Shown here: piece after piece, positions 1 through 41,215 of the stretch
Layout: each line of letters begins with the position of its first letter
How positions within the stretch are numbered: position 1 is the stretch's first letter
Origin: a virus
Taxonomy: Duplodnaviria > Caudoviricetes
Strand: one strand, 5' to 3'
Length of the DNA: 41,215 nt
Virus record (IMG/VR): IMGVR_UViG_3300037047_000153
Location: 1 to 41,215 of that record
Program-made: the position numbers and the translations under genes
The notes under the pieces: generated by a model
The model's input: the letters and a program-made list of their open reading frames with translations, nothing else
The model's database searches: none
Told to the model about the DNA's origin: nothing

Positions 1-216
1 ATCGTCGATGAAGCCGCAGGTGTTCACGATCACGAGATCAGCACCGGCAAAGGTCTTGGAGGTCTGGTAACCCTCGGCGCTGAGCTGCGTGAGGATGAGT
101 TCGGAGTCGGTCAGCGCCTTGGGGCACCCAAGCGATACCATCCCTATACTCGGCACGCGCGCCGGCTTGTCAGCCGCCGGGCCGGTGGGGTCAAGGGAAA
201 CGGGAGCTTCATTCAT
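1..216 (-). CDS. rimO: RimO ribosomal protein S12 methylthiotransferase, 5' part; chimeric, with a phage-supplied N-terminus (gene continues off the left edge)
   Basis: Minus strand reads [72 protein letters not shown], containing the SLGCPK and VNTCGFI motifs of RimO/MiaB methylthiotransferases. In-frame ATGs at 216 and 141. Confidence 0.92.
100..150. other. Left prophage junction (att site); crossover core GCA 124-126, phage arm AGCGATA 131-137 and CTATAC 144-149
   Basis: The phage-side arm is the inverted complement of the arm at the right junction (GTATAG 40938-43, TATCGCT 40950-56). Confidence 0.88.
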
Positions 217-1834
217 GTCGGGTCTGGTCTATTCGTACAGTCGGTTTTCTGATCCCAGCCAGGCCAAGGGCCACAGTCTGGAGCGGCAGGCCGCTTATGC
301 CGCCAAGTGGGCCGCTGAGCACGGCCTGCGGCTGGATGAGGCGCTGTCGCTGCGCGATGAGGGCCTGTCGGCCTACCACCAGCGCCACGTCAAATCGGGC
401 GCGCTGGGCGTGTTTCTGGCCGCCGTGGAGGGCGGCAAGGTGCCGCCGGGCTCGGTGCTGGTGGTCGAGGGGTTGGACCGCCTATCGCGGGCCGAGCCCA
501 TCCAGGCCCAGGCCCAACTGGCCCAGATTGTAAATGCCGGCATCACCGTCGTCACCGCATCGGACGGCAAAGCCTACAGCCGCGAACGGCTCAAGGCGAA
601 CCCGATGGACCTGGTCTATTCGCTGCTGGTCATGATCCGCGCCCACGAAGAGAGCGACACCAAGAGCAAGCGCGTGCGCGCGAGCATCGTGCGCCAGTGC
701 GATGGATGGCTTGCCGGCACCTACCGCGGGCTGATCCGCAACGGCAAAGACCCGGTGTGGCTGCGCCTGGCCGCCGGCCGCTGGGAGCTGATCCCCGAGC
801 GCGCCGAAGCCGTGCGCACCGGCATCGACCTTTACCGCCGCGGCCACAGCGCCACGCGCATCATCAGCGAACTGACCGAGCGCCAGATGTCGCTCACCGG
901 GCGCGGCCCGCAGGCCCTGCAGATCTACCGGCTGATCCACCAGCGCGCGCTGATCGGCGAGAAGGAGATCGCGGTCGACGGCCGCGCCTACCGCCTGCCC
1001 GGCTACTACCCTGCCCTGCTCACCGAAGCCGAGTGGACCGATCTGCAAACCCTCGCCGGCACACGCGGGCGCCGCGCGCCGGCCGGGCCGGTGCCGGGCA
1101 TCCTCACCGGCATGCGCATCACGCGCTGCGGCTACTGCGGCCGCGCCCTGGTGGGCCAGAACATCGGCACCCGCAAGCGGCGCGAAGACGGCGGCATCCA
1201 CGACGGCCACCGCCGCCTGCACTGCACCAGCTACGCCAACGGCGGTTGCCCCGTGCCCGGGTCGTGCTCCGTCGCGCCCATCGAGCGCGCGCTGATGGGC
1301 TACTGCTCCGACATGGTGAACCTGCAGGCGCTCTACGGCGACGACCGCGCGGCCGAACCGCGCGCGCGACTGGCCAGGCTGCGCGCCGAGGCGGCCGAGC
1401 TGGGCACCCTGCTCGAACGCCTGACAGACGCCATGCTGCAGGCCGGCGCTGACGGCGGCACCCCGGCCACCTTCGTGCGCCGCGCGCGCGAACTCGAAGC
1501 CCGCCAGGCCGACAACACGCGCGAGGCCGCCCAGGCCGAGCGCGACCTCTCAGCCGTGGCCCGCACAGACCTGACGGGCGCAGACGAAGCCTGGCGCGCG
1601 CTGGCGGCCGGCGTGGAGGCGCAAGACGATGACGCGCGCATCCAGGCGCGCCAGCTGGTAGCCGACACATTCGAGCGCATCGTGGTCTACCGCCGCGGCG
1701 TGGACCCGGCCGCCACGCCCCCCGGCGTGATGGACGTGATGCTGCTGGCCAAGGGCGGCGCGATGCGACTGCTGCGCATCAACGCGGCTGGCGCCGTGAT
1801 CGCGGCCGATGAGGTGTGGCAGGGCGAGGGGTGA
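215..1834 (+). CDS. Large serine recombinase (phage integrase)
   Basis: Resolvase N-terminus YSYSRFSD (catalytic Ser) and LDRLSR, recombinase domain, zinc ribbon CGYCG...C...C, coiled coil. Start placed at ATG 215 (MSGLVYSY), not 89. Confidence 0.95.
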
Positions 1835-3151: not shown

Positions 3152-3475
3152 TCATCCTTCTTTGACGCGGGTGCGGATCACGAGGGTGGCGAAGCCGGTC
3201 AGCACCAACACCTCGGCGAGGGTCGGTCGCTCCAGGCGGGCGAGCGTTCCGCCGGCATCGGGCGGCACGCCCAGGGCGAGCAGCACGGGCGCGGCCAGCG
3301 AGCCGGCGGCGCCGAGCGCGAGCAGGATCCAGGCGATGGCTTTGAGCGCGTCAACGCAGCACTGGCGCACGGAGCGGCCGGGCAGCAGGATGTCGGTGCG
3401 CTCCAGCTTGTTGAGCGCCTCGGCGACGACGATGAGGCCGGCCAGCGCGTGCAGGATCTGCAAGGTGGTACTCAT
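3152..3475 (-). CDS. Holin-like membrane protein
   Basis: 107 aa, about three hydrophobic segments, directly upstream of the endolysin. Confidence 0.6.
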   Translation of the reverse strand: MSTTLQILHALAGLIVVAEALNKLERTDILLPGRSVRQCCVDALKAIAWILLALGAAGSLAAPVLLALGVPPDAGGTLARLERPTLAEVLVLTGFATLVIRTRVKEG

Positions 3476-3876
3476 GCGGTGGGCCCCCCTTCCGTGCCTT
3501 GGGGCAGCGGTTTTATGCGCTCGATCACGCCGCGCAGGATGCGCTGCGCGCCGGCGCCGACGGCGAAGGCGACGCCCAGCAACAGCGCGTCGGGCAGGTT
3601 GGCCATGAGCAGCGCGAGAGGCGTGGTGTAGCCGGCGGTCAGGCTGCTGGCCAGGGCGACGGCAATGCGCCGGAAGGTGGCGCGAACGAGGTGTTGCCAG
3701 GTGTCACCCTCGCTGGGCACGCTGTGCAGCAGCACGATGGCCACCAGCGCGCCAGCAAACCCGGCTACGAGCACGTCGGGACGCAGGCCCAGGTTGATGC
3801 CCCAGGCGGTGAGCATGGCGACGGCGGGCGGCGCTGCGGCGAGCGTGGCGGCGGCTGGGCTGATGGGCTCGGGCAT
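3472..3876 (-). CDS. Holin/antiholin-like membrane protein
   Basis: 134 aa with several TM segments; first gene of the lysis cassette. Confidence 0.6.
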   Translation of the reverse strand: MPEPISPAAATLAAAPPAVAMLTAWGINLGLRPDVLVAGFAGALVAIVLLHSVPSEGDTWQHLVRATFRRIAVALASSLTAGYTTPLALLMANLPDALLLGVAFAVGAGAQRILRGVIERIKPLPQGTEGGPTA

Positions 3877-3901
3877 GCGCGGGGTCTTTCTGTGGGTGGG
3901 C

Positions 3902-4135
3902 TTACTCTTCGACCGTCACGGGCGTGAGCGCGGGCGCCGGCCCTTCGATCACGCCGGCGCGCACGAACACCTGGTCGCTCACGGCGGCGCTGCCGCGCAC
4001 GCGCTGCGTGCCGCCGCCAGGAAATTCGACGGTGGCGGTGCCGTCGGCGTTGAGGGCGATCACCTCGCCCGCCAGCAGCGGCGCTTCGGGCAGCATCTCG
4101 CGCAGGGCGCGGTAGAGGTTGGTCTGCAGGCTCAT
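3902..4135 (-). CDS. Small tail-tip protein (77 aa)
   Basis: MSLQTNLYRALREMLPEAPLLAGEV...; last gene of the tail module, beta-rich OB-like pattern. Confidence 0.6.
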   Translation of the reverse strand: MSLQTNLYRALREMLPEAPLLAGEVIALNADGTATVEFPGGGTQRVRGSAAVSDQVFVRAGVIEGPAPALTPVTVEE

Positions 4136-4137
4136 GG

Positions 4138-6003
4138 TCAAACGGTCTCCAGGTGGCGTTCGATCTGCACGCTCTGGCGCACCGCTTCGCCGAACTTCGC
4201 GCTCACGCTGACGGAGCGCACGCGGCCGCGCCAGGGCGTGCTGTGGTTGATCTGCACGAGCTGGCCCACGTCCAACACGCCGGGCTGGCTGGCCCCGGTG
4301 AGCACGGGCAGGCTGAGCGTGACGATGTGCTTGGGGCCGGCCGCGCCGACGATGGATCGCCCGCGCCAGCGCACCGCCTCGGGCGCGGTGATCAGCGGGT
4401 CGGTGATCATGGCGGCGAGCTTGTCGCCAGCGGTGCCGGCGCGGCGGTAGAGGCCGCGGTAACCCTGGCTCACCCCGCTGACGTAGACGGCGTTGATGTC
4501 GGGCCCGTCGGCGCGCTCGGTGCCGGCGACCATGAGCGCGTCGGGCGCGAGCTCCACGTCGGGCACCACGCCCGAGGCGTACCAGTTCCACGGGCCGCCG
4601 GTGAGGCCGCCCGTGAGGTCTGGATACGGGTGGCGCGCGAGCAGCGTGGGCAACGTGCGGTGGCTCTGCAAAAAGCCGCCCGCGCCCTCCACGATGGTCT
4701 GCACCGCGGCCAGCGGCGTGCCCACATGGCTCCAGGCGCCGGCGGTAACGAGCCAGTCTGTGATGCCCCAGTCAAGGTCAGCGCCGGTGAACTCCAGCGC
4801 GGCCAGGGCGAGCTGCTGCGCGGTGCGGTCGCTGGTGTTGCCGCGGCTGCTCTCGCGCGCCACCGGGCCGGCCAGCAAGGCCGTGGCGCTGCGCCCGCTG
4901 ATGCGCACGCTGCGCTCGCCAAAGGCCTCCTGGTGCTGCAGGCTGTCCACCACGAACACGAACGGAATGCCGTCGAGCGTGATGCGGATCTGCGCGGGCA
5001 GGCCGGCGCTGGGCGCGAGCTGCTCGAAGGCCTCGGGGAAGGCGGTGGCGCTGAAGGACCGGGCAAAAGATCCGGCGTCGGCGTTGAGCGTCACGTCCTG
5101 GATGTTGATCGGCTCCAGATCGGGCAGGCGCACGGCGGTGAGTGAATGGACGGTCATGAAATACCTCGCGGGGAGGATGTAGAGGGGGGCCAGCGGGCCG
5201 CCAGGCCCGACCGCCCCGCACACCCGGCCAAACACCAGATGCACAGGCCCGCCCGCATAGGCCGGACAGGCGAACACGAGGTGCAGGTCGGGGACGTGGG
5301 GCGTGGTGCCGGGGCCGGTGGGCAGGGGCGGCCAGACTTCTTTGCCGGGCGGGATGGCGCGGGCGGTTTGCCAGGGTTCGTCAAAGTCAAACCCTCGGGC
5401 GCTGGCGATGCCGAACAGGTGTTGCGCCAAGGCCTGCAGCCGGGCGGCGACCTGGTGCGCCTGGGCGCCGCCGGTGTGGGTGAGCCGGGCCACCTGGTGC
5501 GGCTGCGCGGCCAGGGCCTGCAGCGCGGTGGCGACCTGGTGCACCTGGGCCGCCTGGGCGCGCACCTGCAGCGCGGCCTGGTGCACCTGGGCGGCTTGCG
5601 CGGCGCGGGCGGCGGCTTGTTGCCAGGCCTGGGCGCGTTCGCCGGCCACGTGGGCGGCGCTGAGCCAGGGCTGGTTGTTGGCCGCTTCGGCCGGGCGGGC
5701 CTGCTGCAGCGGCTGCTCGTGCCCGCTCAGGCGGCGCGCGGGCAGTTTGAGGCCCTGGTCGATGGCGGCCAGGGCGGCGGCGGCGACCTGGTGCGGCTGG
5801 GTGCGGCTGACGACGACGCGGATCGGGTTGCGGTTGTCGTAGCGGGCCAGGGCGCTGACGGTGATGCCGCCGAGCACGATGGTGGCGTGGGCGGTGACGG
5901 GCAGGATCTCCGGCTCTTCGGGCGCATCGGTGGAGCCGAAGACGAGGTTGAGCGGCCCGCCGGTGTAGCGCGGGCGGCTGAAGACCAGGTTGAGATCGGC
6001 CAT
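4138..6003 (-). CDS. Tail/baseplate hub-like structural protein with 14-aa repeats
   Basis: 621 aa in the tail operon; N-terminal Q/A/H-rich repeats and a C-terminal hub-like region. Confidence 0.7.
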   Translation of the reverse strand: MADLNLVFSRPRYTGGPLNLVFGSTDAPEEPEILPVTAHATIVLGGITVSALARYDNRNPIRVVVSRTQPHQVAAAALAAIDQGLKLPARRLSGHEQPLQQARPAEAANNQPWLSAAHVAGERAQAWQQAAARAAQAAQVHQAALQVRAQAAQVHQVATALQALAAQPHQVARLTHTGGAQAHQVAARLQALAQHLFGIASARGFDFDEPWQTARAIPPGKEVWPPLPTGPGTTPHVPDLHLVFACPAYAGGPVHLVFGRVCGAVGPGGPLAPLYILPARYFMTVHSLTAVRLPDLEPINIQDVTLNADAGSFARSFSATAFPEAFEQLAPSAGLPAQIRITLDGIPFVFVVDSLQHQEAFGERSVRISGRSATALLAGPVARESSRGNTSDRTAQQLALAALEFTGADLDWGITDWLVTAGAWSHVGTPLAAVQTIVEGAGGFLQSHRTLPTLLARHPYPDLTGGLTGGPWNWYASGVVPDVELAPDALMVAGTERADGPDINAVYVSGVSQGYRGLYRRAGTAGDKLAAMITDPLITAPEAVRWRGRSIVGAAGPKHIVTLSLPVLTGASQPGVLDVGQLVQINHSTPWRGRVRSVSVSAKFGEAVRQSVQIERHLETV

Positions 6004-20612: not shown

Positions 20613-22246
20613 GCGGGGGTGTCCTCGGGTTCGCGCGTCTGCGGCGGCTGCGCACCGGCCTGCGGCGCGGCGGCGGCGCCGGCCTTGGGAACGGGCAGCA
20701 GGCCGGCTTTGCTCAGGCGCTGGTGTTCGGCGAGCTTCTGGTCGAAGGTGGCGTTCCAGTCGGTGCCGCCGAGTTCCCACTCGGCGCGCTCGCGGGTCAT
20801 GAGGCGGGCGTCGATGGCCGAGGTGTAGGCCGCGACCTCGTCTTTGGGGTTGATGCTGCCCATGCTGTCGCCAGGCCAGGCGCTGCGGGTGTAGGCCCAG
20901 CGCATGAGGGGGTCGGAGAAAAAGCCGGGGGCGCTGATGCGGCCGAGGTAGACGGCTTCGGCCATCCAGGTCTCGACGATGGGCTGGCAGAAGCTGAGGC
21001 CGGCCCAGAAGCGTTCGCTGCGGAAGTGGACCCAGGCGTCGAGCAGGGCGGCTTTGCTGGCGCTGTAGCTGCTGTTGAATTGCTTGAGCAGGACTTCGCG
21101 CGGGATGCCGAGGCCCATGCCCATCAAGCCGACGAGCATGTGGATGAAGCCTTCGGCGTTGGGGTTGGGGCGCTTGGGGTCGGCGAAGGTGGCTTTTTCG
21201 CCTTTGGCGAGGCCGAGCACGGCGCCCATGCCGAGGCCGATTTCGTCGCTGGCGGCGGAGCCGGTGCCTGCGCCGCCACCGTCAGCGCCGAAGACGGGGG
21301 CGGTGTTGCCGCTTTCGGTTTCGATCAGGACGGTGAAGAAGGCGTTGAGCACGGCGGCGTTGACTTCGGCTTCGGTGAAGCGGCCGCACTGCTTGATGAG
21401 GTCAACGATGGGCGCCAGGTAGGGCACGCCGCGCGGCTGGCCGGGGCGGTTTTTCTTGTAGTGGTGCAGCAGGCGGCGGCGGCCGCTGTCGCCCTGGAAG
21501 TTGACCCATTCGCCGGCGTACATGCTGCCGGCCTTGGGGGCGTAGCCGCCGCCGGGGTGGCGGTCGTAGATGTGGGCGGCAAGGGGGCGGCCACCGGGGC
21601 CGAACTGGATGCCGCCGGCGATGGCGTCGGTGTCCATCTGGCCGAGGGGGTTACCCACGCGGTCCGCTTCGATGAGCTGGAAGCGCAGGCCGTAGGGCTG
21701 CATGCGGGTGCGCGGGGCGGTGGGCAGCAGGGTGAAGATGTCGCCGCTTTCTTTGGCGCCGCGCACGGCGGTGCCTTGCGCCTGGTAGAAGTTTTGTTCG
21801 CCGGTGAGGTCGCAGGCCTGGGGGTCGTCGGCCCAGAGGCTGAACTCGGCCTGGACGTGGGATTTCCACTCTGCGGCCTGGTCGGCGGACCAGCCGAGCA
21901 CGCGGCGGTCGGGCGTGGCGACGTAGGCGAGGCCTGTTCCGATGATGCGGTCGACCGACGTGTTGATGGCGCCGGCGGCGATGGGGTTGGTGCGGGTGAG
22001 TTCGCGCGAGGCGCCGCGCTGGGTGCCGAGCTGGGGCAGGGTGTCGCGGGCAGCGCTGCGGGCGAAGGGGTTCCACCAGCGGGTGCCGGCGCCGCTGCCG
22101 CTGGTGCCGCCGCCGGGGCCGGGGGTGCCGGTGGAGGCTTCGATGGCCATGGCTTCGAAGGCGTCGACCTGGGCGCGGGCTTTGACGCGCGAGGCGACGG
22201 CCTGCGGCGCGAAGGGCAGCAGAGCTTTGTCGATGAGGTTCATCAT
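20609..22246 (-). CDS. Portal protein, lambda family
   Basis: RPGQPRGVPYLAP, NSSYSASKAALL and INPKDEV motifs. Confidence 0.93.
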   Translation of the reverse strand: MMNLIDKALLPFAPQAVASRVKARAQVDAFEAMAIEASTGTPGPGGGTSGSGAGTRWWNPFARSAARDTLPQLGTQRGASRELTRTNPIAAGAINTSVDRIIGTGLAYVATPDRRVLGWSADQAAEWKSHVQAEFSLWADDPQACDLTGEQNFYQAQGTAVRGAKESGDIFTLLPTAPRTRMQPYGLRFQLIEADRVGNPLGQMDTDAIAGGIQFGPGGRPLAAHIYDRHPGGGYAPKAGSMYAGEWVNFQGDSGRRRLLHHYKKNRPGQPRGVPYLAPIVDLIKQCGRFTEAEVNAAVLNAFFTVLIETESGNTAPVFGADGGGAGTGSAASDEIGLGMGAVLGLAKGEKATFADPKRPNPNAEGFIHMLVGLMGMGLGIPREVLLKQFNSSYSASKAALLDAWVHFRSERFWAGLSFCQPIVETWMAEAVYLGRISAPGFFSDPLMRWAYTRSAWPGDSMGSINPKDEVAAYTSAIDARLMTRERAEWELGGTDWNATFDQKLAEHQRLSKAGLLPVPKAGAAAAPQAGAQPPQTREPEDTPA

Positions 22247-31906: not shown

Positions 31907-31987
31907 ATTGTATTCCCCGCCGGGGAAACATTGTCAAGACCCATCGGGGAATTTCTTTTTCCCCGCTATTCGCTTGCAATCCTTGCT
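31907..31987. promoter_or_regulatory. cro/cI divergent control region with operators
   Basis: Minus-strand TTGACA (31932-37) and TACAAT (31907-12), 19-bp spacer holding the palindrome TTCCCCGCCGGGGAA (31913-27); degenerate copies toward cI. Confidence 0.8.
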
Positions 31988-32398
31988 ATGAAAACCGTCG
32001 AGGAAACCCGTCGCGAGCGCCTCAAAATCCTGGTGGAAAGGCACGGGGGAGACAAGGATGGCATGGCGAACCTGTGCGAAGCCCTGGGCTACGCTCGGAA
32101 CAACACCGCCGGTCTCACCCGCATCCTCAACGCCAACATCCGCCACGACCGCGACGGCGAGGCCTACGAAATGGGCAGCAAAAAGGCTCGGGAGATCGAG
32201 AACACCCTCAAACTTCCCCAGGGCTGGATGGACACTCCGCCCACCTATTCCGAGCTGAACGGCTCCACAGACCCGCTCAGCAAGGCGCTAGACATCATGA
32301 CTGCCATGGAGCCGGAGGCGCGCTACCAGGCGCTCCGGTTACTTGATGCGCTTGCACAACCACCACAATCCAACGGCACCCACGGCAACAAACACTGA
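31988..32398 (+). CDS. cI: CI-like immunity repressor without a peptidase domain
   Basis: RRERLKILVE...MGSKKAREIENTLKLPQGWMD, typical of short lambdoid repressors; 136 aa, no S24 domain visible. Confidence 0.82.
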   Translation: MKTVEETRRERLKILVERHGGDKDGMANLCEALGYARNNTAGLTRILNANIRHDRDGEAYEMGSKKAREIENTLKLPQGWMDTPPTYSELNGSTDPLSKALDIMTAMEPEARYQALRLLDALAQPPQSNGTHGNKH

Positions 32399-32470
32399 CA
32401 TCGCGCCGCCGTCAGCCCGAGACAGGGAAGCCGCCAACGCGCCACAATATGGTTCAACAAGGGAGGAACC

Positions 32471-32980
32471 ATGAAATACCTGATCACAGCCGCGCTTCTA
32501 CTCACCAGCCTGCAAGCCGAAGCCATCAACAAATGCACGGGTGCAGATGGTTCAACCGTCTTTCAGGATGCCCCGTGTGTGGGCAAGGGCGGCGCCATCG
32601 ATGTACGCCCAGCTGCCGGCCACGCAAAGCCGAACGCAGCGCCACTAGACGGGGTCCAGACACAAACCGAAGCGCAGCGGATCGAGGCCAATGTGACCGC
32701 CAGCCAGAAAGAGCGCCGCCTACGGGAGTTGACGCTCAGACTGATCCCAGGTGCCGATGCAGCCGTTGAAAGAAACCTCGCCAATTGCAGGATCGAGCAG
32801 GCACGCATTGAGCGCGACCAGTTCGCCTACGTGCAGAACTTGTTCGGCAAAACCCATGCAGCCCAGAAAGCCGCCGAGCTGGCCGCCTCCACCGCCAGGT
32901 GCGACACCCAAGATCGCGATCTGCGCGCCAAAGCCGACCGCCTGAGGGACGAGTGCAAGCAGCTCGGCGGCTGCAAATAA
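32471..32980 (+). CDS. Secreted DUF4124-like protein (probable lysogenic conversion gene)
   Basis: Signal peptide then INKCTGADGSTVFQDAPC; strong AGGGAGG RBS; directly downstream of cI. Confidence 0.8.
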   Translation: MKYLITAALLLTSLQAEAINKCTGADGSTVFQDAPCVGKGGAIDVRPAAGHAKPNAAPLDGVQTQTEAQRIEANVTASQKERRLRELTLRLIPGADAAVERNLANCRIEQARIERDQFAYVQNLFGKTHAAQKAAELAASTARCDTQDRDLRAKADRLRDECKQLGGCK

Positions 32981-32999
32981 CCCCAGCAGCACCTCGCTG

Positions 33000-33022
33000 G
33001 CCGCCATTTGGCGGCTTTTTTT
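33000..33022 (+). terminator. Terminator of the cI-DUF4124 transcript
   Basis: GCCGCCA-TT-TGGCGGC followed by T7. Confidence 0.8.
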
Positions 33023-33043
33023 CGTCCGTAAAAACCGATTCAG

Positions 33044-33118
33044 ATCCCCGACGGGTCGCTTTTTTGCACAAACTTTCCCCGCCGGGTATTGACATGCATT
33101 CCCCGCCGGGGAAATAAT
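33044..33118 (+). promoter_or_regulatory. Early rightward promoter (PL analogue) with three operators
   Basis: TTGACA 33089-94 and AATAAT 33113-18. Operators TTCCCCGCCGGGGAA 33099-113, TTCCCCGCCGGGTAT 33075-89 and ATCCCCGACGGGTCG 33044-58. Confidence 0.85.
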
Positions 33119-33157
33119 CACCTCCACGCCCAACCCCGGGCGGTTCATGGAGGTCAC

Positions 33158-33460
33158 ATGGCAAAGCACCACCCACCGTTCCCGCTGCGGCCGCTCGCCG
33201 GGCAGTACATAAAGTTCATCATCCCCTATCGGCTGCTCGCTGCCGACGCGGCCATGAGCCGCATGGTCTCTCTCACGAATTCCGCTGCGAAGCGCTCCAA
33301 GACCGGCACCAGCGGCACCGAAGACGCCCTCTGGGTTGCAATGTCCGCCCTGCAAGATCGCATCATGCAAGAGGCGGCTTCTGCGCTCCGCGCTGGTGAG
33401 CTGCTGCTCTGCTGGCACGGAACAAAAGCAACCGCCATCGGGCAGGTGCATGCCGCATGA
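33158..33460 (+). CDS. Hypothetical protein, first gene of the early operon
   Basis: GGAGG RBS; MAKHHPPFPLRP..., 100 aa. Confidence 0.65.
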   Translation: MAKHHPPFPLRPLAGQYIKFIIPYRLLAADAAMSRMVSLTNSAAKRSKTGTSGTEDALWVAMSALQDRIMQEAASALRAGELLLCWHGTKATAIGQVHAA

Positions 33461-33609
33461 AGCGCATCACCATCACCGTGCGCCCCGCCGGCCTGCCCGC
33501 TTACCGCATCACCGGCCTCTTCGCCAGCACCACCGACGCCGCCCTCTTCGCTATCGACCAGCTCGGTGACCGCGGCGGCAGCATCAGCGCCAAGGTGACC
33601 AAGCCATGA
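33457..33609 (+). CDS. Hypothetical protein (50 aa, absent from the ORF track)
   Basis: MKRITITVRPAGLPAYRITGLFASTTDAALFAIDQLGDRGGSISAKVTKP; ATGA overlaps at both ends. Confidence 0.65.
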   Translation: MKRITITVRPAGLPAYRITGLFASTTDAALFAIDQLGDRGGSISAKVTKP

Positions 33610-33830
33610 GCGCCAGCGCCCACCGCTACACCTGCGACGAGCTGGGCGCCTGCCAGAGCCGCGTGAACCCCTGCGCGGGCTGCAAGCCCTTCGCCCCCGG
33701 CGCCATCACCCGCCACGTGCACCCCCAGCGCCGCGCCCTCGCGCGCTGGCTCAGGCGCACCGCCCTTCTCATGTCCCTCGCCGCCGCCGCCGTCGCGCTG
33801 GCCGGCATCGTCTACGGAGCCCTTCAATGA
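33606..33830 (+). CDS. Small Cys-motif membrane protein
   Basis: CDELGACQ...CAGC plus C-terminal TM. Confidence 0.65.
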   Translation: MSASAHRYTCDELGACQSRVNPCAGCKPFAPGAITRHVHPQRRALARWLRRTALLMSLAAAAVALAGIVYGALQ

Positions 33831-34132
33831 GCAAGCCCACCCCGGCGACCGCCCGCGCCAAGCCCATGACCACCGACCCCCTTCGCCTGGACGATGGCAT
33901 CCCCGTGCTGCGCCTGGTGCACAGCGCCCACGAGCGCCGCAGCACCGAGCCCGTGCCCTTCCAGGCCGTAGCGCCCAGCGCCACCGCGCCGCGCGCCAAG
34001 GCGCCCCGCCGACCCATGCCGCCACCACCGCCGCAACCCCGGCAGTCCCTCGCCGCGCTGGCCGTCGCCGCCACCTTCATGGCCGCCATCGTCGGCATCA
34101 TCGTCATCATCGGCCTGGCGCGCAGCGCCTGA
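33827..34132 (+). CDS. Small C-terminally anchored membrane protein
   Basis: Pro-rich segment then TM; ATGA-coupled. Confidence 0.6.
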   Translation: MSKPTPATARAKPMTTDPLRLDDGIPVLRLVHSAHERRSTEPVPFQAVAPSATAPRAKAPRRPMPPPPPQPRQSLAALAVAATFMAAIVGIIVIIGLARSA

Positions 34133-34149
34133 GCCCGCAGGAGCCCGCC

Positions 34150-34488
34150 ATGCAAGCCGCCGGCACCCTCTTCCTCAGCAAGACGCCCCCGCAGACCAGC
34201 CGCGCCGCAGACGGCTGCTTCCAGCTCATGCTGTTCGCCGTTGACCGCATCGCCACCCACCAGGTGGAGCGCTGGGTTGTCATCTACCGCGGCCCCGAAG
34301 CCGAAGCCTTCTGGGCCGCCCACAGCGACCAGCTGCAGCCCGGGCGCGGCATCAGCCTCACCAGCAACCGCGTGCGCAGCCACGTGCTGGGCCGCAGCGC
34401 CCCCGAGATCCACGCCCTGGCCAGCCAGCTGCAGCTGCTCAGCCCGCAGCCGGCCCAGCCCACCGCCACCGAGGCCGCCCACGCATGA
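34150..34488 (+). CDS. Hypothetical protein, possible SSB/PriB-like OB fold
   Basis: 112 aa; pattern G.L...P..R...DG...L.V...W.V...G..AE...L.PG..I resembles SSB. Confidence 0.45.
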   Translation: MQAAGTLFLSKTPPQTSRAADGCFQLMLFAVDRIATHQVERWVVIYRGPEAEAFWAAHSDQLQPGRGISLTSNRVRSHVLGRSAPEIHALASQLQLLSPQPAQPTATEAAHA

Positions 34489-35198
34489 GCACCCCCAAAC
34501 AAAACCACCGGCCCTGGACGCCCACCGAAGTCGACATGCTCCAGCGCGCCTACCCCGACCAGTCCACCGCCGTCGTCGCCGCCGCCCTTGGGCGCTGCAT
34601 CAAGGCCGTCTACCAGAAGGCCAAAGCCATCGGGCTGCAGAAGTCCAGCGCCTTCCTGGCCAGCGAACGCAGCGGCCGCATCCAGCGCGGCCAGCAACAC
34701 CCCAGCATGGTCGCCAGCCAGTTCAAGCCCGGGCAACAGCCCTGGAACAAAGGCACCAACTTCATCGCCGGCGGACGCAGCGCAGAAACCCGCTTCCAGA
34801 AAGGCCGCAAGCCCAGCGAAGCCCGCAACTACGCGCCCATCGGCAGCTACCGCCTCAACCACGACGGCCACCTCGAACAAAAGATGACCGACGACCCCAG
34901 CCTCGCCCCCACGCGCCGCTGGACCCCCGTCTACCGACTGGTCTGGGAGCGCGAACGCGGCCCCATTCCAGCGGGCCACATGGTCACCTTCAAGCCCGGC
35001 CAGAAGACCGCCGTGCTCGAACTCATCACCGCCGAGCGCCTGGAGTGCATCAGCCGCGCCGAAAACGCCCGCCGCAACCACCCGGTCACCAAGTCCCCCG
35101 AGCTGTTTCGCCTTTACCAGCTCAAGGGCGCCATCACCCGCCAAGTCAACCGCATCACCCATCAAGCCACCCAGCAAGCCCAGGAGCCACAGGCATGA
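34485..35198 (+). CDS. HNH-family (HNH_3-like) DNA-binding/nuclease protein
   Basis: WTPTEVDML N-terminal helix-turn-helix, FKPGQQPWNKG/RFQKG repeats, VYRLVWERERGPIPAGH...LECISRAENARRN. Confidence 0.75.
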   Translation: MSTPKQNHRPWTPTEVDMLQRAYPDQSTAVVAAALGRCIKAVYQKAKAIGLQKSSAFLASERSGRIQRGQQHPSMVASQFKPGQQPWNKGTNFIAGGRSAETRFQKGRKPSEARNYAPIGSYRLNHDGHLEQKMTDDPSLAPTRRWTPVYRLVWERERGPIPAGHMVTFKPGQKTAVLELITAERLECISRAENARRNHPVTKSPELFRLYQLKGAITRQVNRITHQATQQAQEPQA

Positions 35199-35479
35199 CC
35201 ACCACCGCCACCAACACCCCCCACATTACCCAGCTGCGCGAGCACCTGCTGCAGACCCTCAGCAGCCTGCGCGACCGCAACAACCCCATGGAGCCCGACC
35301 GCGCCCGCGCCGTGGCCCAGGTCGCCAGCGTGCTGGTGGACACCGCCAAGGTCGAGGTGGACTACATCAAGGTCACCGGGGCGCCCAAGTCCGACTTCAT
35401 CGAGCAGCCGGCCAGCCTGCCCGCGCCCAGCGCCAACAACCCCTTTCCGGTCAGCGCCAGCCACCGCCTGGAAGGCTGA
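35195..35479 (+). CDS. Conserved phage protein coupled to the HNH gene
   Basis: LREHLLQTLSSLRD...RARAVAQVASVLVDTAKVEVDY; ATGA overlap. Confidence 0.7.
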   Translation: MTTTATNTPHITQLREHLLQTLSSLRDRNNPMEPDRARAVAQVASVLVDTAKVEVDYIKVTGAPKSDFIEQPASLPAPSANNPFPVSASHRLEG

Positions 35480-35482
35480 GCC

Positions 35483-36163
35483 ATGTCCACCAACCTCACC
35501 CCCGCCACCATCGCCGTCTTGAGCCACCTCAAGGTGCACGGCCTCAGCACCCGCAGCCACATCAAGGCCCACGTGCCCGGTCTGCCCGTCAGCACCCTGA
35601 ACAACCTGCTCACCCTCAAACACATCAGCGTCGACCACACCACCACCAACGAAGCCCGCTACAACATCACCCCGCGCGGCCTCGCCAAGCTCGCAGCGCC
35701 CAACATCCCGCTGCCCAAGCCCAAAACCCAGGCCAAAGCCGAAGCCCAGGCCGCCACCGCGCTCGACTCCAACCAGCAGACCGAGCAAAGCATTCTCGAC
35801 ACCCTGCGCCGCGCCACCACGTCCATCACCCTGCCCGAAGTCGCCAAGCGCATGGGCCGCACGCTCGACATCGTGCGCCCCAGCATGACCACGCTCGTGC
35901 AGGCCGGCAGCGTGATCGGCAGCAACGGCAAGCCCGCGCGCTACCGCCTGCCCGAGCAGCCGGCCAACCAGCGCGCCCGCACGCGCGGCATCCACAACGC
36001 CAGCGCCAGCGGCGACTACCTGGGAGAACAACTGCAGCGCAACCCGGGCATCCGCCCCGAACGCTTCGTCGCCTTCACCCTGCCCAGCCGGGTGGGCAAC
36101 CGCCTGCACTGGCCTGACGGGCGGGTCACACCTTTTGATCAACACCCTGGCCTGCCGGCCTGA
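35483..36163 (+). CDS. Tandem winged-HTH protein
   Basis: Two wHTH-like segments (ARYNITPRGLAKL; ITLPEVAKRMG...LVQAGSV...PARYRL). Confidence 0.6.
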   Translation: MSTNLTPATIAVLSHLKVHGLSTRSHIKAHVPGLPVSTLNNLLTLKHISVDHTTTNEARYNITPRGLAKLAAPNIPLPKPKTQAKAEAQAATALDSNQQTEQSILDTLRRATTSITLPEVAKRMGRTLDIVRPSMTTLVQAGSVIGSNGKPARYRLPEQPANQRARTRGIHNASASGDYLGEQLQRNPGIRPERFVAFTLPSRVGNRLHWPDGRVTPFDQHPGLPA

Positions 36164-36182
36164 TTTTCGAGCGCACCACCAC

Positions 36183-38183
36183 ATGACCACCGAAACCCAA
36201 GACAACCCCATCACCGCCAACGACCCCGAAGCCGGGTCACACGTGCGCCTGCGCGAACACCTGACCATCCCCGCCGGTGGGCCAGACAAACACGCCGGCA
36301 TGTACGGCACCATCGCCGGGCGCGACCCGTTCGGCGGCTACCTCATCAAGGTCGGGGCCAAGACCATGCACTACTCGCGCGAAGACTTCCTGGTCGTCGC
36401 TGAGCCCAGCGCCGACCAGCTGGCCAGCGCCTTGTTGCGAGACGAGATTGCGTCATTTACCACCGCCCCCGGCGCGTTGCCCGCAGCCACGCACCCCCAG
36501 GGCGCCGTGGCCCAGCTGCTCAACGAGCCGCCCCTGGCCGCCATCAACAGCCCGACCAACCCGCGCAAGCGCCGCGGGCTGGACATCGACAGCCTGCGCT
36601 CCATGGCCGACAGCATCAAGGCCCACGGCCTCATGCAGCCCATCGTGGTGCGGCCGCTGCCCTGGGAGCGCCTGGAAGAAACCGCCGGCATGGACCCGCG
36701 CCCGGCCTACGAGGTGATCGCCGGCGAGCGCCGCTGGCGCGCGGCCCAGCTGGCCGAGCTGGCCGACATGCCCATGCTGCTGCGCCACCTGAGCGACGAG
36801 GCCGTGCTGGAGATTCAGCTGGTCGAGAACATCGAGCGCGAAGACCTCGACCCGATGGAAGAGGCCGAAGGCTTCGCCCTGCTGCGCGACAAGCTGGGCT
36901 ACACCGTTGACCAGATCGCCGAGCGCATGGGCAAAGGCCGCGGCCCGAGCTACGTGCGCAAGCGCATGAAGCTGCTCGACCTCACGCCCGCCAGCCGCGA
37001 CGCCATGTTCGAAGGCACACTGCAGCTCAGCACCGGCCTGGTGGTGGCCAAGTACCCGGCCGAGATACAGGCCAAGGCCGTGAAGATCATCAAGGGCATG
37101 GCCTCCAAGGGCGCCGACGGCCAGCCCGTGCCCGCGCCGTTCCGCACCGTGGTGCTGGAGCTGTACCGCAAGCTCAACACCATCCTCAAGACCGCCGCGT
37201 TCGACACGCAAGACCCCGGCCTGGTCATGACGGCCGGCCCCTGCAGCACCTGCCCCAAGCGCACCCGCGCCGACCAGGATCTGTTCGCCGAGTCCACCGA
37301 CGCGGGCGAAGACAGTTGCCTCGACAGCGCCTGCTGGGAAGCCAAGAAGACCGCCCACGTGCAGCGCATCCGCGCCGACGCCCAGGCGCGCGGCCTGCAG
37401 GTGATGGACGAGCACGACGCGGCCAAAGCAGCGCCCAGCCCGTACAGCTCGTTCATCTACGGCTACACCCGCCTGAATGAAACCGCGTACACCGAAACCG
37501 GCAACGACGGCGAGGAACGCCAGGTCACCTACGCCGACGCGCTGCGCGCCCAGGGCCGCAAGGCGCCCAAACCCATCGTGTTCATCAACCCGCACACCAG
37601 CAAGGCCGAAGAGGTGATCCCGGACGATCTGGCCGACAAGCTCAGGCCCGTGGTCGAGCGCGAGGCCACGCCACCACCAGAGCCCACCCCTGTGCCCGAA
37701 GAGCACCGCGCCTTGAAGCACCAAGACGTGCGCCGCGCCCTGTTTTACCGCCTGTTCGACAGCGTTCGCAGCCGCCCGCGCACGGTGGAAGACCTGCGCA
37801 TGGCCGCCATCGCCATCATGTGCCAGACCGACGACGCACACATCCACGTCGAAGCGTTCATGGGCTGGAGTGAGTCCGTGGACGCAGACGACCCCGAGGA
37901 ATACCTGCGCGAAAAGATCGAGTCGCTTGACGCCGACCAGCTCGGCCAGGTGATCACCATGGCCGCCATGGAGCAAGCCCTCGACTGGTACACAGGCCAC
38001 CTGAGAACCGTCGAGCAAGGAGCCGATTTCTTCCAAGCCCAAGGCATCGACATCCTGGCCGTGCGCAACAAGGTGCTGGAAGACCTGGAACGCCAGGCAG
38101 CGCACAGCGCCGACGAGGGTGAAGGCGACCCCGATGAATACGCCGAGGAAGACGGCGACGACGACGAAGGAGAGCCGGCATGA
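36183..38183 (+). CDS. Large ParB/RepB/Spo0J-family protein
   Basis: NPRK, GLMQPIVVRP, YEVIAGERRWRAA, ENIEREDLDPMEEA, HTH, Cys cluster CSTCPKR...CLDSAC, acidic tail. Confidence 0.9.
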   Translation: MTTETQDNPITANDPEAGSHVRLREHLTIPAGGPDKHAGMYGTIAGRDPFGGYLIKVGAKTMHYSREDFLVVAEPSADQLASALLRDEIASFTTAPGALPAATHPQGAVAQLLNEPPLAAINSPTNPRKRRGLDIDSLRSMADSIKAHGLMQPIVVRPLPWERLEETAGMDPRPAYEVIAGERRWRAAQLAELADMPMLLRHLSDEAVLEIQLVENIEREDLDPMEEAEGFALLRDKLGYTVDQIAERMGKGRGPSYVRKRMKLLDLTPASRDAMFEGTLQLSTGLVVAKYPAEIQAKAVKIIKGMASKGADGQPVPAPFRTVVLELYRKLNTILKTAAFDTQDPGLVMTAGPCSTCPKRTRADQDLFAESTDAGEDSCLDSACWEAKKTAHVQRIRADAQARGLQVMDEHDAAKAAPSPYSSFIYGYTRLNETAYTETGNDGEERQVTYADALRAQGRKAPKPIVFINPHTSKAEEVIPDDLADKLRPVVEREATPPPEPTPVPEEHRALKHQDVRRALFYRLFDSVRSRPRTVEDLRMAAIAIMCQTDDAHIHVEAFMGWSESVDADDPEEYLREKIESLDADQLGQVITMAAMEQALDWYTGHLRTVEQGADFFQAQGIDILAVRNKVLEDLERQAAHSADEGEGDPDEYAEEDGDDDEGEPA

Positions 38184-38407
38184 ACACATCCCTGCTCATG
38201 CCTGAAGCCCAAACCGCCGGCCTGCGCGGCCAGCTGCTCGTCATGGCCAGCCTGCTGGAGGAAACCCTACGCGTGGTCAAGAACGTCGAAGCCGAGGGCT
38301 GCGACGAAGGCGAGCTGCTGCAGGCCCTGATCAGCAAAGCCGAAGCCGCGATCGCGGCCGTGTTGACCGAGCAGCATGCTGTGCCAGTGGCGGGGGCGCG
38401 ATCATGA
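38180..38407 (+). CDS. Hypothetical protein (75 aa)
   Basis: ATGA-coupled; helical. Confidence 0.6.
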   Translation: MNTSLLMPEAQTAGLRGQLLVMASLLEETLRVVKNVEAEGCDEGELLQALISKAEAAIAAVLTEQHAVPVAGARS

Positions 38408-38955
38408 ACCAGAAAACCAGCGCCTACGCCCGCAGCCGCGGCCTGACCCGCGTTGCTCCCCAGCTGCGCCGCGTGGCCGTCAAGGCCCTGCAGGGCAACA
38501 ACGGCCTCACCCGGCACAACGAGGTCAACACCCTCTTCACCGAGGCCGAAATCCAGATGCTGCTGCGCGACCCTCGCGCCGCTCACGAAGCCATGCGCAC
38601 CGGGCGCGGCACCTACAACGACCTGGTCAGCATCAGCAGCGCGCTGCACAAAGGCGTAGCCATTGAAGACGCGCGCGTCATCGTGCGCGGCTTCGAGCCC
38701 ATCTACACCGCAGCCGAATCCGCCCTGCGCACCATCGAAGCCCGCGCCACCCGCACCGGCCGCTGGGTGCCCACGGCGCTCTACGCGGCCGAGATCAACG
38801 CCATCGACGACCTGCTGTTCGCCTACGAGCAAGCCCTGCGCGTGTGCACCTACGGCGAGTTCTACCAGCGCCAGGCCGTGGCGCTGGCGCGCACCGCGTC
38901 AAACGGCAAGCCCGTTTTCACGGTGGGCGATGTGGTGGAGTACCCCGGATCATGA
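38404..38955 (+). CDS. Conserved phage hypothetical protein (183 aa)
   Basis: ATGA-coupled; phage-like codon usage. Confidence 0.65.
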   Translation: MNQKTSAYARSRGLTRVAPQLRRVAVKALQGNNGLTRHNEVNTLFTEAEIQMLLRDPRAAHEAMRTGRGTYNDLVSISSALHKGVAIEDARVIVRGFEPIYTAAESALRTIEARATRTGRWVPTALYAAEINAIDDLLFAYEQALRVCTYGEFYQRQAVALARTASNGKPVFTVGDVVEYPGS

Positions 38956-39212
38956 TGACCACCACCCTGTTCCTGGAACTGCTGGCCGCGGCCTGCGGCA
39001 TGGCCGGCGCCCTGGTGCTCGCCCTGAACGGACCGCGCGCCGGGTGGGGGTTCGTGCTCTACCTGGTCAGCAACGCCGCCTGGATCGCAGCGTCGTGGGC
39101 GCAAGGCCAGTGGCCCCTGTTCGTGCAACAGATCGTGTTCGCTGCCGTCAGCGTGCTGGGCATCTGGGTGTGGCTGGTCAGGCCGCTAACCAATGAAAGG
39201 ACCGCATCATGA
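38952..39212 (+). CDS. Small 3-TM membrane protein (PnuC-like half repeat)
   Basis: GWGFVLYLVSNAAWI...WPLFVQQIVF...LGIWVW. Confidence 0.65.
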   Translation: MMTTTLFLELLAAACGMAGALVLALNGPRAGWGFVLYLVSNAAWIAASWAQGQWPLFVQQIVFAAVSVLGIWVWLVRPLTNERTAS

Positions 39213-39463
39213 TCGGCACCCAACCCACCGGCGCCGTGCCCGGCGTCGTGATCTCAGCCGTGGCCCACGAAGGCCTGACCGTGACGGTCGACGGCAAGCC
39301 CGCCCGACTGGCCATCGTGCTCGATGACGGCACCGTCGTGGCCGCCGGCACCGACGTGGCCAGGGAAGCCCAGGCCGTGGCTGTGAACCTCTACCGGGGG
39401 TTCCTCAAGGGGAATGGGCATCTGCGCGTGCTGAGCCCGTCTATTCCGACGGGGAAGCATTGA
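39209..39463 (+). CDS. Hypothetical protein (84 aa); stop codon lies in the integron crossover core
   Basis: GAAAGGA RBS; TGA at 39461-63 within ATTGAAC. Confidence 0.65.
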   Translation: MIGTQPTGAVPGVVISAVAHEGLTVTVDGKPARLAIVLDDGTVVAAGTDVAREAQAVAVNLYRGFLKGNGHLRVLSPSIPTGKH

Positions 39464-39510
39464 ACACCACCGATGAGCCGCCTGCGGTCGGCTCGATTTA
39501 AGAGTTGGGC
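39459..39510 (-). other. attC site (52 bp)
   Basis: Minus strand: R'' GCCCAAC, TCTTA, L'' AATCGAGC, CGACCGCAGGCG, L' GCTCATC, GGTGGT, R' GTTCAAT. Canonical 5/6-nt spacers and two extrahelical bases. Confidence 0.88.
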
Positions 39511-39800
39511 GAAGGCCCGGAGAGGAACACGATGAACATGATTAGCGAGCTACGGCACCGGTTTACAGCGGCATCGACAACGACTGTGATGGTCACGGTC
39601 GATGAATTCAATCAGTTGCAGCGCGAGTGGATCACCCGCACTGGCGCAGAAGACATGGTTGCAGCAGAGCGCGCGCGGTGCGCCGCAGCCCTGCGGACTG
39701 CCAGAGAAGGCTATGCCAGCGAGGAAATCACCGGCCTGCCAGTGCTTCCGCAGTGGCGCGAGCGCACGCTTGCGCTGATTGACGAAGCATTGCAGCCCAA
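39465..39800 (-). mobile_element. Integron gene cassette (336 bp)
   Basis: Starts at G^TTGGGC of attI; its own R'' GCCCAAC is the exact complement, as expected for an integrated circle. Confidence 0.85.
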
Positions 39801-39831
39801 CACAAATTCGGGAACACCATCAGTCGGATAA
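39532..39831 (+). CDS. Cassette-encoded hypothetical protein (99 aa), inverted relative to attC
   Basis: GGAGAGGA RBS; MNMISELRHRF...ALIDEALQPN then TNSGTPSVG from attI; codon usage differs from neighbours. Confidence 0.75.
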   Translation: MNMISELRHRFTAASTTTVMVTVDEFNQLQREWITRTGAEDMVAAERARCAAALRTAREGYASEEITGLPVLPQWRERTLALIDEALQPNTNSGTPSVG

Positions 39832-39835
39832 CACC
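39795..39835 (-). other. attI-like site
   Basis: Minus strand GGTGTTATCCGA-CTGAT-GGTGTTCCCGAA-TTTGT-G^TTGGGC: R box, degenerate L box 5 nt away, two GGTGTT direct repeats, immediately 5' of intI. Confidence 0.8.
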
Positions 39836-39846
39836 TGGAGCCCATC

Positions 39847-40887
39847 ATGCAAGTCGTTGATTCACAAGCCAAGCCAGACGTTACGCACGACGCCACACCG
39901 GCGTTATGCGACAACACTGGCAAGCCCAAGAAGCTGGAGCAGCTGCTCGCCGACGCCATCGCCGTGCGGCACTACAGCAAGCGCACGCGAGAAGCCTACT
40001 GGCATTGGATCAAGCGGTTTGTGCTGTGGTCCGGCAAGCGGCACCCGCGAGACATGGGGCAGACCGAGGTCGGCCAGTTCCTCACCTGGCTGGCCAGCGA
40101 TCAGCAGGTTTCTGCAAGCACCCAGCGCCAGGCGCTGGCCGCGATCCTGTTTTTGTACCAGAAGGTGCTCAACATCGACATCGGCTGGATCGACAACATC
40201 GTGCGCGCCAAGCAGTCGCAGCGCCTGCCCGTCGTCATGACGATGGACGAAACCCGAGCCGTGCTGGCCCACACCAGCGGCACGCCCGGCCTGTTCCTGC
40301 AGCTGCTGTACGGCACCGGCCTGCGCCTCATGGAGGGCCTGAATCTGCGCGTGAAGGATCTGGACCTGGAGCAGCGCCAGATCATCGTCCGCGCCGGCAA
40401 GGGCAACAAGGACCGCGTGACGATGCTTCCCGCGCGCCTGGTGCAGCCACTGCGCGAGCTGCTGAAAGAGCGGCGCCGCTGGCACGACAAAGACCTCGCA
40501 ACCAACCACGCCAGCGTCGATCTGCCGCACGCCCTGGCCCGCAAGTACCCACACGCCGGGCGCGAATGGGCTTGGCAGTATGTGTTCGCCACACCGGACT
40601 ACCACGTCAACACCGAGACCGGTGAACAGCGCCGTCACCACCTGTTCGACTGGACCATCCAGCGCCACATGAAGGCCGCCCTACAGGCCGCCGGCATCAG
40701 CAAGCCCGCCACACCGCACACCCTGCGCCACTGCTTCGCGACCCACCTGCTCCAGGCAGGCACCGACATCCGAACGATTCAGGAACTGCTCGGCCACAGC
40801 GACGTCGAGACGACGATGATCTACACCCACGTGGTCGGCCAGACAGCCGGCCGGGGTGCCGTGAGCCCTCTCGACAGGATGAACTGA
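39847..40887 (+). CDS. intI: Integron integrase
   Basis: RHYSKRTREAY, VSASTQRQALAAILFLY, LLYGTGLRLME, GKGNKDR, the IntI-specific insertion VDLPHALARKYPHAGREWAWQYVF, RRHH, HTLRHCFATHLL, QELLGHSDVETTMIYTHV. GGAG RBS. Confidence 0.96.
   Translation: MQVVDSQAKPDVTHDATPALCDNTGKPKKLEQLLADAIAVRHYSKRTREAYWHWIKRFVLWSGKRHPRDMGQTEVGQFLTWLASDQQVSASTQRQALAAILFLYQKVLNIDIGWIDNIVRAKQSQRLPVVMTMDETRAVLAHTSGTPGLFLQLLYGTGLRLMEGLNLRVKDLDLEQRQIIVRAGKGNKDRVTMLPARLVQPLRELLKERRRWHDKDLATNHASVDLPHALARKYPHAGREWAWQYVFATPDYHVNTETGEQRRHHLFDWTIQRHMKAALQAAGISKPATPHTLRHCFATHLLQAGTDIRTIQELLGHSDVETTMIYTHVVGQTAGRGAVSPLDRMN
39850..39862. promoter_or_regulatory. IHF consensus site
   Basis: CAAGTCGTTGATT matches YAANNNNTTGATW exactly. 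Confidence 0.55.
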
Positions 40888-40894
40888 CCCACCT

Positions 40895-40921
40895 AAAAAG
40901 CCCGCCCAGCGCGGGCTTTTT
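40895..40921. terminator. Bidirectional terminator ending the early operon
   Basis: AAAAAGCCCGC-CCAGC-GCGGGCTTTTT. Confidence 0.85.
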
Positions 40922-41025
40922 CACGCCCGGTGAACCGGTATAGATGCGCTATCGCTCGCGCAGCCCAGGCTCACAAAACCGACCTTGGGCGCCGCGGCGC
41001 CCGGAGTAACAACAGTTTCAGTCAT
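40921..41025 (-). pseudogene. rimO: Displaced native 5' end of rimO (22 codons plus 12 phage codons, then TGA)
   Basis: MTETVVTPGAAAPKVGFVSLGC then ASDSASIPVHRA*; joins in frame to PKALTDSE at 123. Confidence 0.92.
40938..40985. other. Right prophage junction (att site); core GCA 40960-62
   Basis: Phage arm GTATAG...TATCGCT joined to host rimO 5' sequence. Confidence 0.88.
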
Positions 41026-41144
41026 GGCCCGATTGTCTCAGACCCGCCCATCCACGGCGGGGGCAGGGCGAACGTCCAGCATCGGAACGCCCCCCCGCGG
41101 GCGCATCGACCCGTGCAGCAGCGAGGCATGCAGCCCAGGAGATA

Positions 41145-41215
41145 TCAGCGCTTCAACCCCAGGGCCGCCAGCATCTGCTCGCTGTTCTTCTGCATCTGCT
41201 CCTGCATCTGCGTGA
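41145..41215 (-). CDS. phaR: 3' end of host gene, probably PHA synthesis repressor PhaR
   Basis: TQMQEQMQKNSEQMLAALGLKR*; matches the PhaR C-terminal pattern and phaR-rimO synteny in Burkholderiales. Confidence 0.7.
   Translation of the reverse strand, partial: TQMQEQMQKNSEQMLAALGLKR

Follow-up and report, generated by a model that had tools for sequence, protein, structure and literature searches.

The window analysed here, a single contig of 41,215 bp, is a complete temperate siphophage prophage inside the host rimO gene. Profile matches of the PHROG/Pfam type recover a serine integrase, genes for lysis, tail, head, terminase and primase, a cro/cI region and an early operon (Table 1). The left end of the window encodes the N-terminal part of RimO on the minus strand (TIGR01125, E 2e-16), the original rimO start lies at the right end, and the junction core GCA is found at 124-126 on the left and again on the right. 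Contigs of runs X1 and X2 also contain the empty host site, with window positions 97-123 joined to 40960, and cover it roughly ten times as deeply as the prophage. The insertion point is the 5' end of rimO (window 1-216 and 40960-41215), for which the phage side supplies a substitute N-terminus, so that rimO stays open. The right flank is presumably akin to phaR; a 22-aa piece of it gave no family match.

An integron platform stands after the last early gene and ahead of the terminator and att site; it is composed of a single gene cassette with its attC, an attI and the integrase gene with which the early operon ends. The encoded IntI scores 440 bits against TIGR02249 (cut-off 265) and aligns over its full length with IntI4 (PDB 2A3V, E 5e-78), including the catalytic motifs and the IntI insertion. 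Compared with intI of a related locus (L002), the changes at codon positions 1/2/3 number 38/19/94, a purifying pattern in which the third position prevails. Two relatives, L062 and L063, represent the state without an integron: the 84-aa anchor gene directly precedes the terminator and the same rimO att site, a serine integrase is present, and in L063 a hairpin homologous to the terminator of the window stands right after the anchor gene. The integron block of 1.4 kb occupies the spot that is empty in these relatives. The 84-aa gene frequently closes the early region ahead of the terminator and att site (L053, L062, L063, L077), a homologous serine integrase lies inside its flank in 8 of 38 loci, and its product is a candidate recombination directionality factor.

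Table 1. Position, strand and basis of the main features of the prophage
Feature	Position	Strand	Basis
Large serine recombinase, phage's own integrase	215..1834	+	profile matches, relatives
cro (PR-type) promoter, two repressor-operator-like repeats	31913..31951	-	template for PL block
CI-like repressor, 136 aa	31988..32398	+	PHROG repressor match, E 6e-10
PL-type early promoter region, three operator-like repeats	33045..33118	+	just behind terminator
Early operon, 12 co-oriented genes including HNH-type and ParB-like	33158..39212	+	profile matches
84-aa anchor gene	39209..39463	+	stop overlaps distal crossover
attC	39459..39510	- (top strand)	rule-based scan and covariance model
Gene cassette proper, 336 bp	39465..39800		attC, leader, RBS, codons 1-89
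Cassette-gene RBS GGAGAGGA	39519..39526	+	sequence
99-aa helical protein gene	39532..39831	+	ORF, homologues, model
attI	39799..39846	-	crossover 39801/39800, clade motif, second GTT box at 39832
Integron integrase IntI, 346 aa, intact	39847..40887	+	TIGR02249, 2A3V
Bidirectional intrinsic terminator ending operon	40896..40920	+	z -3.35
Right prophage junction, core GCA	40960..40962		empty site in contigs of runs X1 and X2; RimO match

Recombination sites and the cassette gene

A sequence-only reading of this DNA had placed attI and attC on the minus strand with normal geometry, pointing away from intI, and two ways of detecting attC agree with it. A rule-based scanner returns one match in the entire window, running from 39510 to 39459 on the minus strand, and a covariance model made from 38 sites of related loci, with the window's own site excluded, returns the same interval and strand as its sole match in the window (32.8 bits, E ~7e-6). 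The strand call was benchmarked on the assayed sites of phage TJE1, for which the three sites of the model agree with the top strand implied by the primer table of Qi et al. 2023; the re-checked TJE1 array is canonical, with attC and ORFs both on the plus strand. Covariation in the attC alignment was discarded as evidence, the sites having been picked for pairing, which makes the argument circular.

Read on its top strand, the attC consists of R'' (GCCCAAC), a 5-nt spacer and an 8-nt L'' with an extra C, followed by a short VTS with one unpaired A, a 7-nt L', a 6-nt spacer and R' (GTTCAAT), with the distal crossover G^TT at 39465/39464. The stem is very short and weak, and the integrated form reaches its energy minimum in a fold other than the recombinogenic one. 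RNA folding over attC and attI gave z ~0.2, hence no special mRNA structure, and Rfam had no match above the gathering score over 32900-41215. A small hairpin at 39507-39518 (GGGC-GAAG-GCCC) takes the last four bases of R'' just before the RBS; such a hairpin is present at 15 of 112 clade sites (background 2.5%) and could act as a competitor of attC folding or as a gate on translation.

The attI crossover, G^TTGGGC on the minus strand, is the exact complement of R''. The site holds the RBS of intI (39837-39840, plus strand) and carries a motif, AAC-NNN-RATTC in plus reading, that is present in 31/31 loci of the IntI clade described below against 2/56 outside it; as the motif was derived from the clade, only the control is informative. 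IntI, attC boxes with extra-helical bases and an attI with a G^TT matching R'' are thus all in place, whereas the ORF that a canonical integron has ahead of attC on its top strand is missing here. The cassette had been given as 39465..39831; its start stands, and its true end is the attI crossover at 39801/39800, so that the earlier interval overshoots by 31 nt.

The cassette gene and its RBS are on the plus strand and attC sits at the 5' end of the gene, just as the sequence-only reading had proposed, with the ATG 21 nt beyond R''. This spacing recurs in a survey of phage attC sites that took orientation into account: an exact motif taken from the attC of the window recovered 11 viral loci with ten attC sites, at nine of which an RBS and a start, 20-24 nt past the box, lie on the bottom strand. 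Homologues support the start at 39532, 26 of them aligning from residues 1-3. At its other end, the 99-aa ORF takes its last ten codons and its stop, 15 nt before the start of intI, from attI. On the minus strand the cassette contains no ORF of at least 40 aa with a start codon, and its longest frame there, 89 codons from stop to stop, has no good start. Among 12 homologue loci (four near-duplicates of 16 were left out), the differences at codon positions 1/2/3 of the ORF number 153/125/266.

The 99-aa protein has 69 matches, which comprise 26 to its N-module only, 41 to its C-module only, one to itself and one to a repeat protein; judged from these matches, it is a chimera of two modules that occur apart in other phage genes. 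It has no match in Pfam, PHROG or NCBIfam, its AlphaFold model is all helical at low confidence (pTM 0.40), and no fold match emerged (Foldseek best E 0.5; Atlas matches under 0.9). Most likely, the product is a dispensable early accessory protein. The expectation that its homologues be preceded by an inverted attC held in part: 10 of the 16 homologue loci have an attC, with the best match on the minus strand, but it lies directly before the homologue in only three and directly after it in seven, while six have none. Homologues of the N-module also occur in AT-rich contigs (L183, L191, L194, L195), between weak minus-strand attC matches or box-like motifs, and since they are flanked in this way the reversed pool may reach beyond high-G+C hosts.

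Reversed cassette genes across a phage IntI clade

A search with IntI gave 49 viral loci and 581 genome loci, the best 80 of the 581 being retained. In a quick maximum-likelihood tree of 112 distinct proteins, the IntI of the window falls in a clade of 32 rows (SH-aLRT 99), 27 of them viral and five from genome contigs, with nine viral rows outside. Three of the genome rows (L091, L093, L122) are prophage-like and two are too short to judge. L002 was lost in de-duplication and is placed in the clade by 86% identity, and 13 other duplicate or partial loci were placed likewise. The covariance model found 142 attC matches in the viral set and 158 in the genome set, and attC is on the minus strand in all clade arrays. 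Outside the clade, two viral loci (L022 7135-8836 and L027 7149-8740) have attC downstream of intI, on the plus strand in L022, resembling the inverted-integrase arrangement. An IntI-like gene annotated only as xerD occurs in a public phage record, Virus Rctr41k (L088, KX853513, 4680-5678); the model found no attC within the region of that locus examined.

That the window represents a distinct class of reverse cassettes, as the sequence-only reading suggested, is supported by several controlled tests. Orientation was scored as an ATG with RBS at most 45 nt beyond the box, in symmetric windows on both sides of the site. An RBS and ATG past R'' on the bottom strand were found at 67/112 attC sites of the clade versus 7/131 in bacterial loci outside, and past R' on the top strand at 1/112 versus 26/131; the RBS and ATG signal is absent from 45 of the 112 clade sites. 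By longest ORF, 71 clade cassettes are reversed, seven canonical and 35 tied, against 11 reversed, 103 canonical and 14 tied outside. Furthermore, PHROG families match 29/113 plus-strand ORFs of clade cassettes versus 1/112 minus-strand ORFs. A codon-usage score was dropped as an orientation test since it failed the controls, calling 77/142 cassettes of bacterial loci reversed. Reversed genes predominate in the phage IntI clade, whereas in bacterial loci outside it they are exceptional.

The sole top-strand family match in the clade is an HTH regulator (L013 2942-3379), a cassette of canonical orientation inside a reversed array. The reversed genes that can be named encode DNA methyltransferases (L012 4107-4649 and L013 3638-4324), a PAPS-reductase-like protein (L010 3709-4479) and a DHH phosphoesterase (L016 3508-4320), and they suggest roles in anti-restriction or DNA modification. 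Some long attC sites (L036 1042-1141, L181 2650-2769, L182 2609-2709) carry the RBS and start of their own gene in the variable loop, on the bottom strand.

At 84 cassette junctions of the clade, 47 genes have their stop ahead of or within the R' box, 35 continue across it and two junctions have no gene end nearby; the read-through genes keep AAC in frame at attC in 33 of 35 cases. The attI junctions behave in the same manner, with 15 stops, 14 genes reading through (all 14 in the AAC frame) and two without a gene end nearby. The gene module lies between two R boxes as in the canonical layout, and only the polarity of the hairpin relative to the gene differs.

The arrays of relatives vary at the expected places. 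L002 carries the identical 84-aa anchor gene, diverges 2 nt beyond the crossover, continues with at least four other cassettes and ends in an intI that is 86% identical; in 68 of 71 pairwise platform alignments, similarity begins no more than 15 nt from the attI crossover. In L006, one two-gene cassette is present twice (3263-3914 and 4338-4989) with another cassette between, as expected from replicative excision and re-insertion. These variable arrays point indirectly to a cassette system that is probably in use. The contigs of runs X1-X5, a type of data that drops rare forms, contain no cassette-excised junction, and the lack of cover at 39578-39793 in the X1 contigs is not taken as evidence of excision.

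A second, L002-like phage co-occurs in run X2; it has in common with the window the 84-aa gene as far as 39467 and the attC arm and leader as far as 39526, and L002 itself has the same attC-leader frame and the same 3' end around a different 76-aa gene (4770-5050). In runs X1 and X3, a contig begins with 28 foreign letters that contain an inverted repeat and then matches the window from 39801 (39801-39833). Reading this loose end as another cassette at attI was rejected, for the AAC triplet is not kept. The 28 letters resemble the repeat of a type I-E CRISPR array, in which case the stretch behind them would be a spacer targeting attI and the crossover AAC would be its PAM; the adjoining 32 nt had no exact match in metagenome contigs.

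Predicted transcription of the cassette and intI

In phage lambda, the promoter behind the repressor gene has operators in common with the cro promoter. The same arrangement is found here, where a promoter behind the repressor gene (TTGACA-18-AATAAT, 33089-33118) overlaps a 39-nt inverted copy, 79% complementary and located at 33075-33113, of the cro promoter/operator block, with operator-like repeats in both. It is the sole sigma70 match in 32000-41215 (11/12), and since it copies this block, control by the repressor is likely. Between 33158 and intI, neighbouring genes share a 4-nt overlap at 9 of 14 junctions, and no gap is larger than the one made up by attC. In the 21 loci with upstream genes, the genes left of the array are on the plus strand in 90/91 calls.

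The earlier statement that no terminator lies between 33158 and 40895 holds for clear terminators, the clear one being at 40896-40920, but not for weak candidates. A strict scan found one weak plus-strand site within intI (40555), and a relaxed scan found five weak hairpin-and-T candidates inside genes (33267, 36133, 37452, 38915, 40150). Transcription from the promoter would have to cover 6.4 kb to reach the cassette and pass the five weak candidates on the way, and no antiterminator was identified.

The LexA box has the consensus CTGT-N8-ACAG. It is absent from the window, and hence from the vicinity of intI, a looser pattern occurring only at 21878 and 36734; LexA-like boxes were found in 2/31 clade loci versus 13/63 outside. 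The window has one weak Pc-like match (8/12 at 39872, minus strand), which is not conserved in L001 or L002. Near the start of intI, Pc-like scores of at least 8 occur in 2/32 clade loci (control region 2/32) versus 57/74 outside (control 31/74), a comparison to be read with the G+C of 0.66 in the clade versus 0.60 outside, as higher G+C depresses promoter scores. A Pfam search of the repressor gave no match to the peptidase domain (S24), and because of this and the missing LexA box near intI, SOS induction should not be assumed. Taken together, the operator-block copy, the 4-nt overlaps and the lack of enrichment for Pc-like sites in the clade lend sequence support to the early promoter, as had been proposed, and to a single, probably repressor-controlled transcript through cassette and intI.

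A probable phage-resident integron with mirror-image cassettes

We consider it quite probable, judging from the sequence comparisons, that the locus is a phage-resident integron with mirror-image cassettes, in which attC polarity is normal, the gene lies on the attC bottom strand and is likely read from PL together with intI, and the cassettes are likely inserted by IntI. Once the repressor is off, one transcript of ~7.8 kb would run from 33118 to 40920, and IntI would insert mirror-image cassettes by its normal bottom-strand reaction. With attI at the 5' end of intI, inserts would lie upstream of intI on this transcript, so that only bottom-strand genes would be expressed. Selection may then have driven reversed cassettes to fixation in the pool while control by Pc and LexA eroded. 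New cassettes would enter beside intI, farthest from the promoter, reversing the bacterial gradient, and genes without their own stop would borrow a short C-terminal tail from the next att site. Single-stranded attC could be supplied by phage replication; an origin close to the primase genes (27.8-30.7 kb) would make the bottom strand of attC the template for lagging-strand synthesis, a position that, as far as the accessible text of PMC8946536 goes, favours attC folding.

Rather unlikely, in our estimate, is that the architecture is real but that expression comes not from PL but from an internal non-sigma70 promoter, or that a residual Pc yields antisense RNA, possibly also in the lysogen. 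The distance to the promoter with its weak terminator candidates, the minus-strand site at 39872 and the restriction of the scans to sigma70 would agree with such expression; however, the gaps of 68 nt (mostly attC) and 15 nt leave no room for a promoter, 39200-39860 contains no plus-strand sigma70 match of at least 7/12, the 39872 site is unconserved and the upstream genes share the plus strand. It is very improbable that the locus is a fossil or hitch-hiker from a host chromosome, a one-off inverted cassette that IntI no longer shuffles. A single cassette and the missing excised form are what a fossil would show, captured chromosomal integron fragments are described for Vibrio prophages in the accessible part of Qi et al. 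2023 (PMC9892861), and inverted ORFs occur at a low rate in bacterial arrays (11/128 by ORF length). However, IntI belongs to a phage-type clade with its own attI motif, intI shows the purifying pattern, the arrays of close relatives differ at the crossovers, and the cassette proteins of the clade have no BLASTP match among 127 chromosomal top-strand ORFs.

The remaining two explanations are barely credible. Top-strand recombination, by which an ordinary cassette would have been put in backwards, is a low-frequency event that gives inverted cassettes, according to the accessible text of Nivina et al. 2016 (PMC5027507), but it would flip gene and attC together, whereas the extra-helical polarity of attC is normal here and only the gene is opposite, and attC is on the minus strand in all clade arrays; this largely refutes it. 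That IntI is the phage's own integrase with attP-like sites is suggested by the location of intI beside the prophage end, where lambdoid int genes lie, and contradicted by the rimO junctions: these belong to a separate serine integrase, their empty host site is seen in contigs, and relatives without an integron use the same att site.

On the mirror-image reading, the system both resembles and departs from those known. The canonical integron (class 1 IntI1/attI1/Pc; Vibrio cholerae IntIA/IntI4) has an IntI of the same TIGR02249 family, attI at the 5' end of intI and an attC with R''/L''/L'/R' pointing away from intI. Here, in contrast, the genes are on the attC bottom strand, attC forms a 5' leader and not the 3' end, Pc and LexA box are not enriched, intI closes a phage operon and the newest cassette would be farthest from the promoter. 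Chromosomal arrays have occasional inverted-ORF cassettes with their own promoter, for example some toxin-antitoxin cassettes. These likewise have the ORF opposite to attC, but in the phages reversal extends to almost every cassette of the array, and the cassette has no space for a promoter. Wrong-orientation cassettes, which Nivina et al. 2016 (PMC5027507, accessible text) state were never observed in mobile or chromosomal integrons, are similar in that the gene faces the integrase and is unreadable from Pc; with the normal attC polarity found here, however, the normal reaction would give the same orientation. The inverted integron-integrase group of Treponema and others, defined in Cury et al. 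2016 (PMC4889954, accessible text), shares the transcription of intI and cassette genes in the same direction. Unlike in that group, the attC top strand here is minus and intI is plus, the opposition usual for integrons, and it is the genes alone that are turned round.

Phage-borne integrons and CALINs are already on record (Qi et al. 2023, PMC9892861). As far as the accessible text of that work goes, its phages likewise carry integron parts in their genomes, with DNA methyltransferase cassettes in both (here L012 and L013), but its complete integrons consist of chromosomal or class 1 material that the phages captured, unlike here, and that text describes neither a reversed class nor a phage IntI clade. 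Our literature search, whose coverage left out most subscription papers, found no description of reversed phage cassettes, and the accessible text of PMC13492144, PMC9024848, PMC11551772 and PMC13366799 has nothing on them; the reversed class is the part for which no earlier description was found.

A broader reading, which we put at somewhat short of an even chance, is that temperate phages of Betaproteobacteria and their relatives run an integron system of their own, with a separate, mirror-image pool drawn from phage early genes and with cassettes built and remodelled inside phages. If true, such a phage-built pool would explain that the same attC-leader frame holds different genes, that genes are module chimeras and that the next att site gives C-termini.

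Integron textbooks link cassette orientation to Pc. A whole phage clade breaks this rule yet retains normal attC polarity. In practice, cassette-PCR and capture screens designed for a top-strand ORF will misread reversed genes or leave them silent. The integron platform can apparently be rewired to the lysis-lysogeny switch of a phage, and phages would gain a site-specific means of varying their early accessory genes. The origin of cassettes, an old open question, becomes testable: mirror-image cassettes count against models in which the transcript of the gene must end with attC, and sister cassettes with the same att frame and different or chimeric genes look like intermediates. Should the pool indeed be phage-built, cassette genesis would be independent of gene polarity and observable in the phage population.
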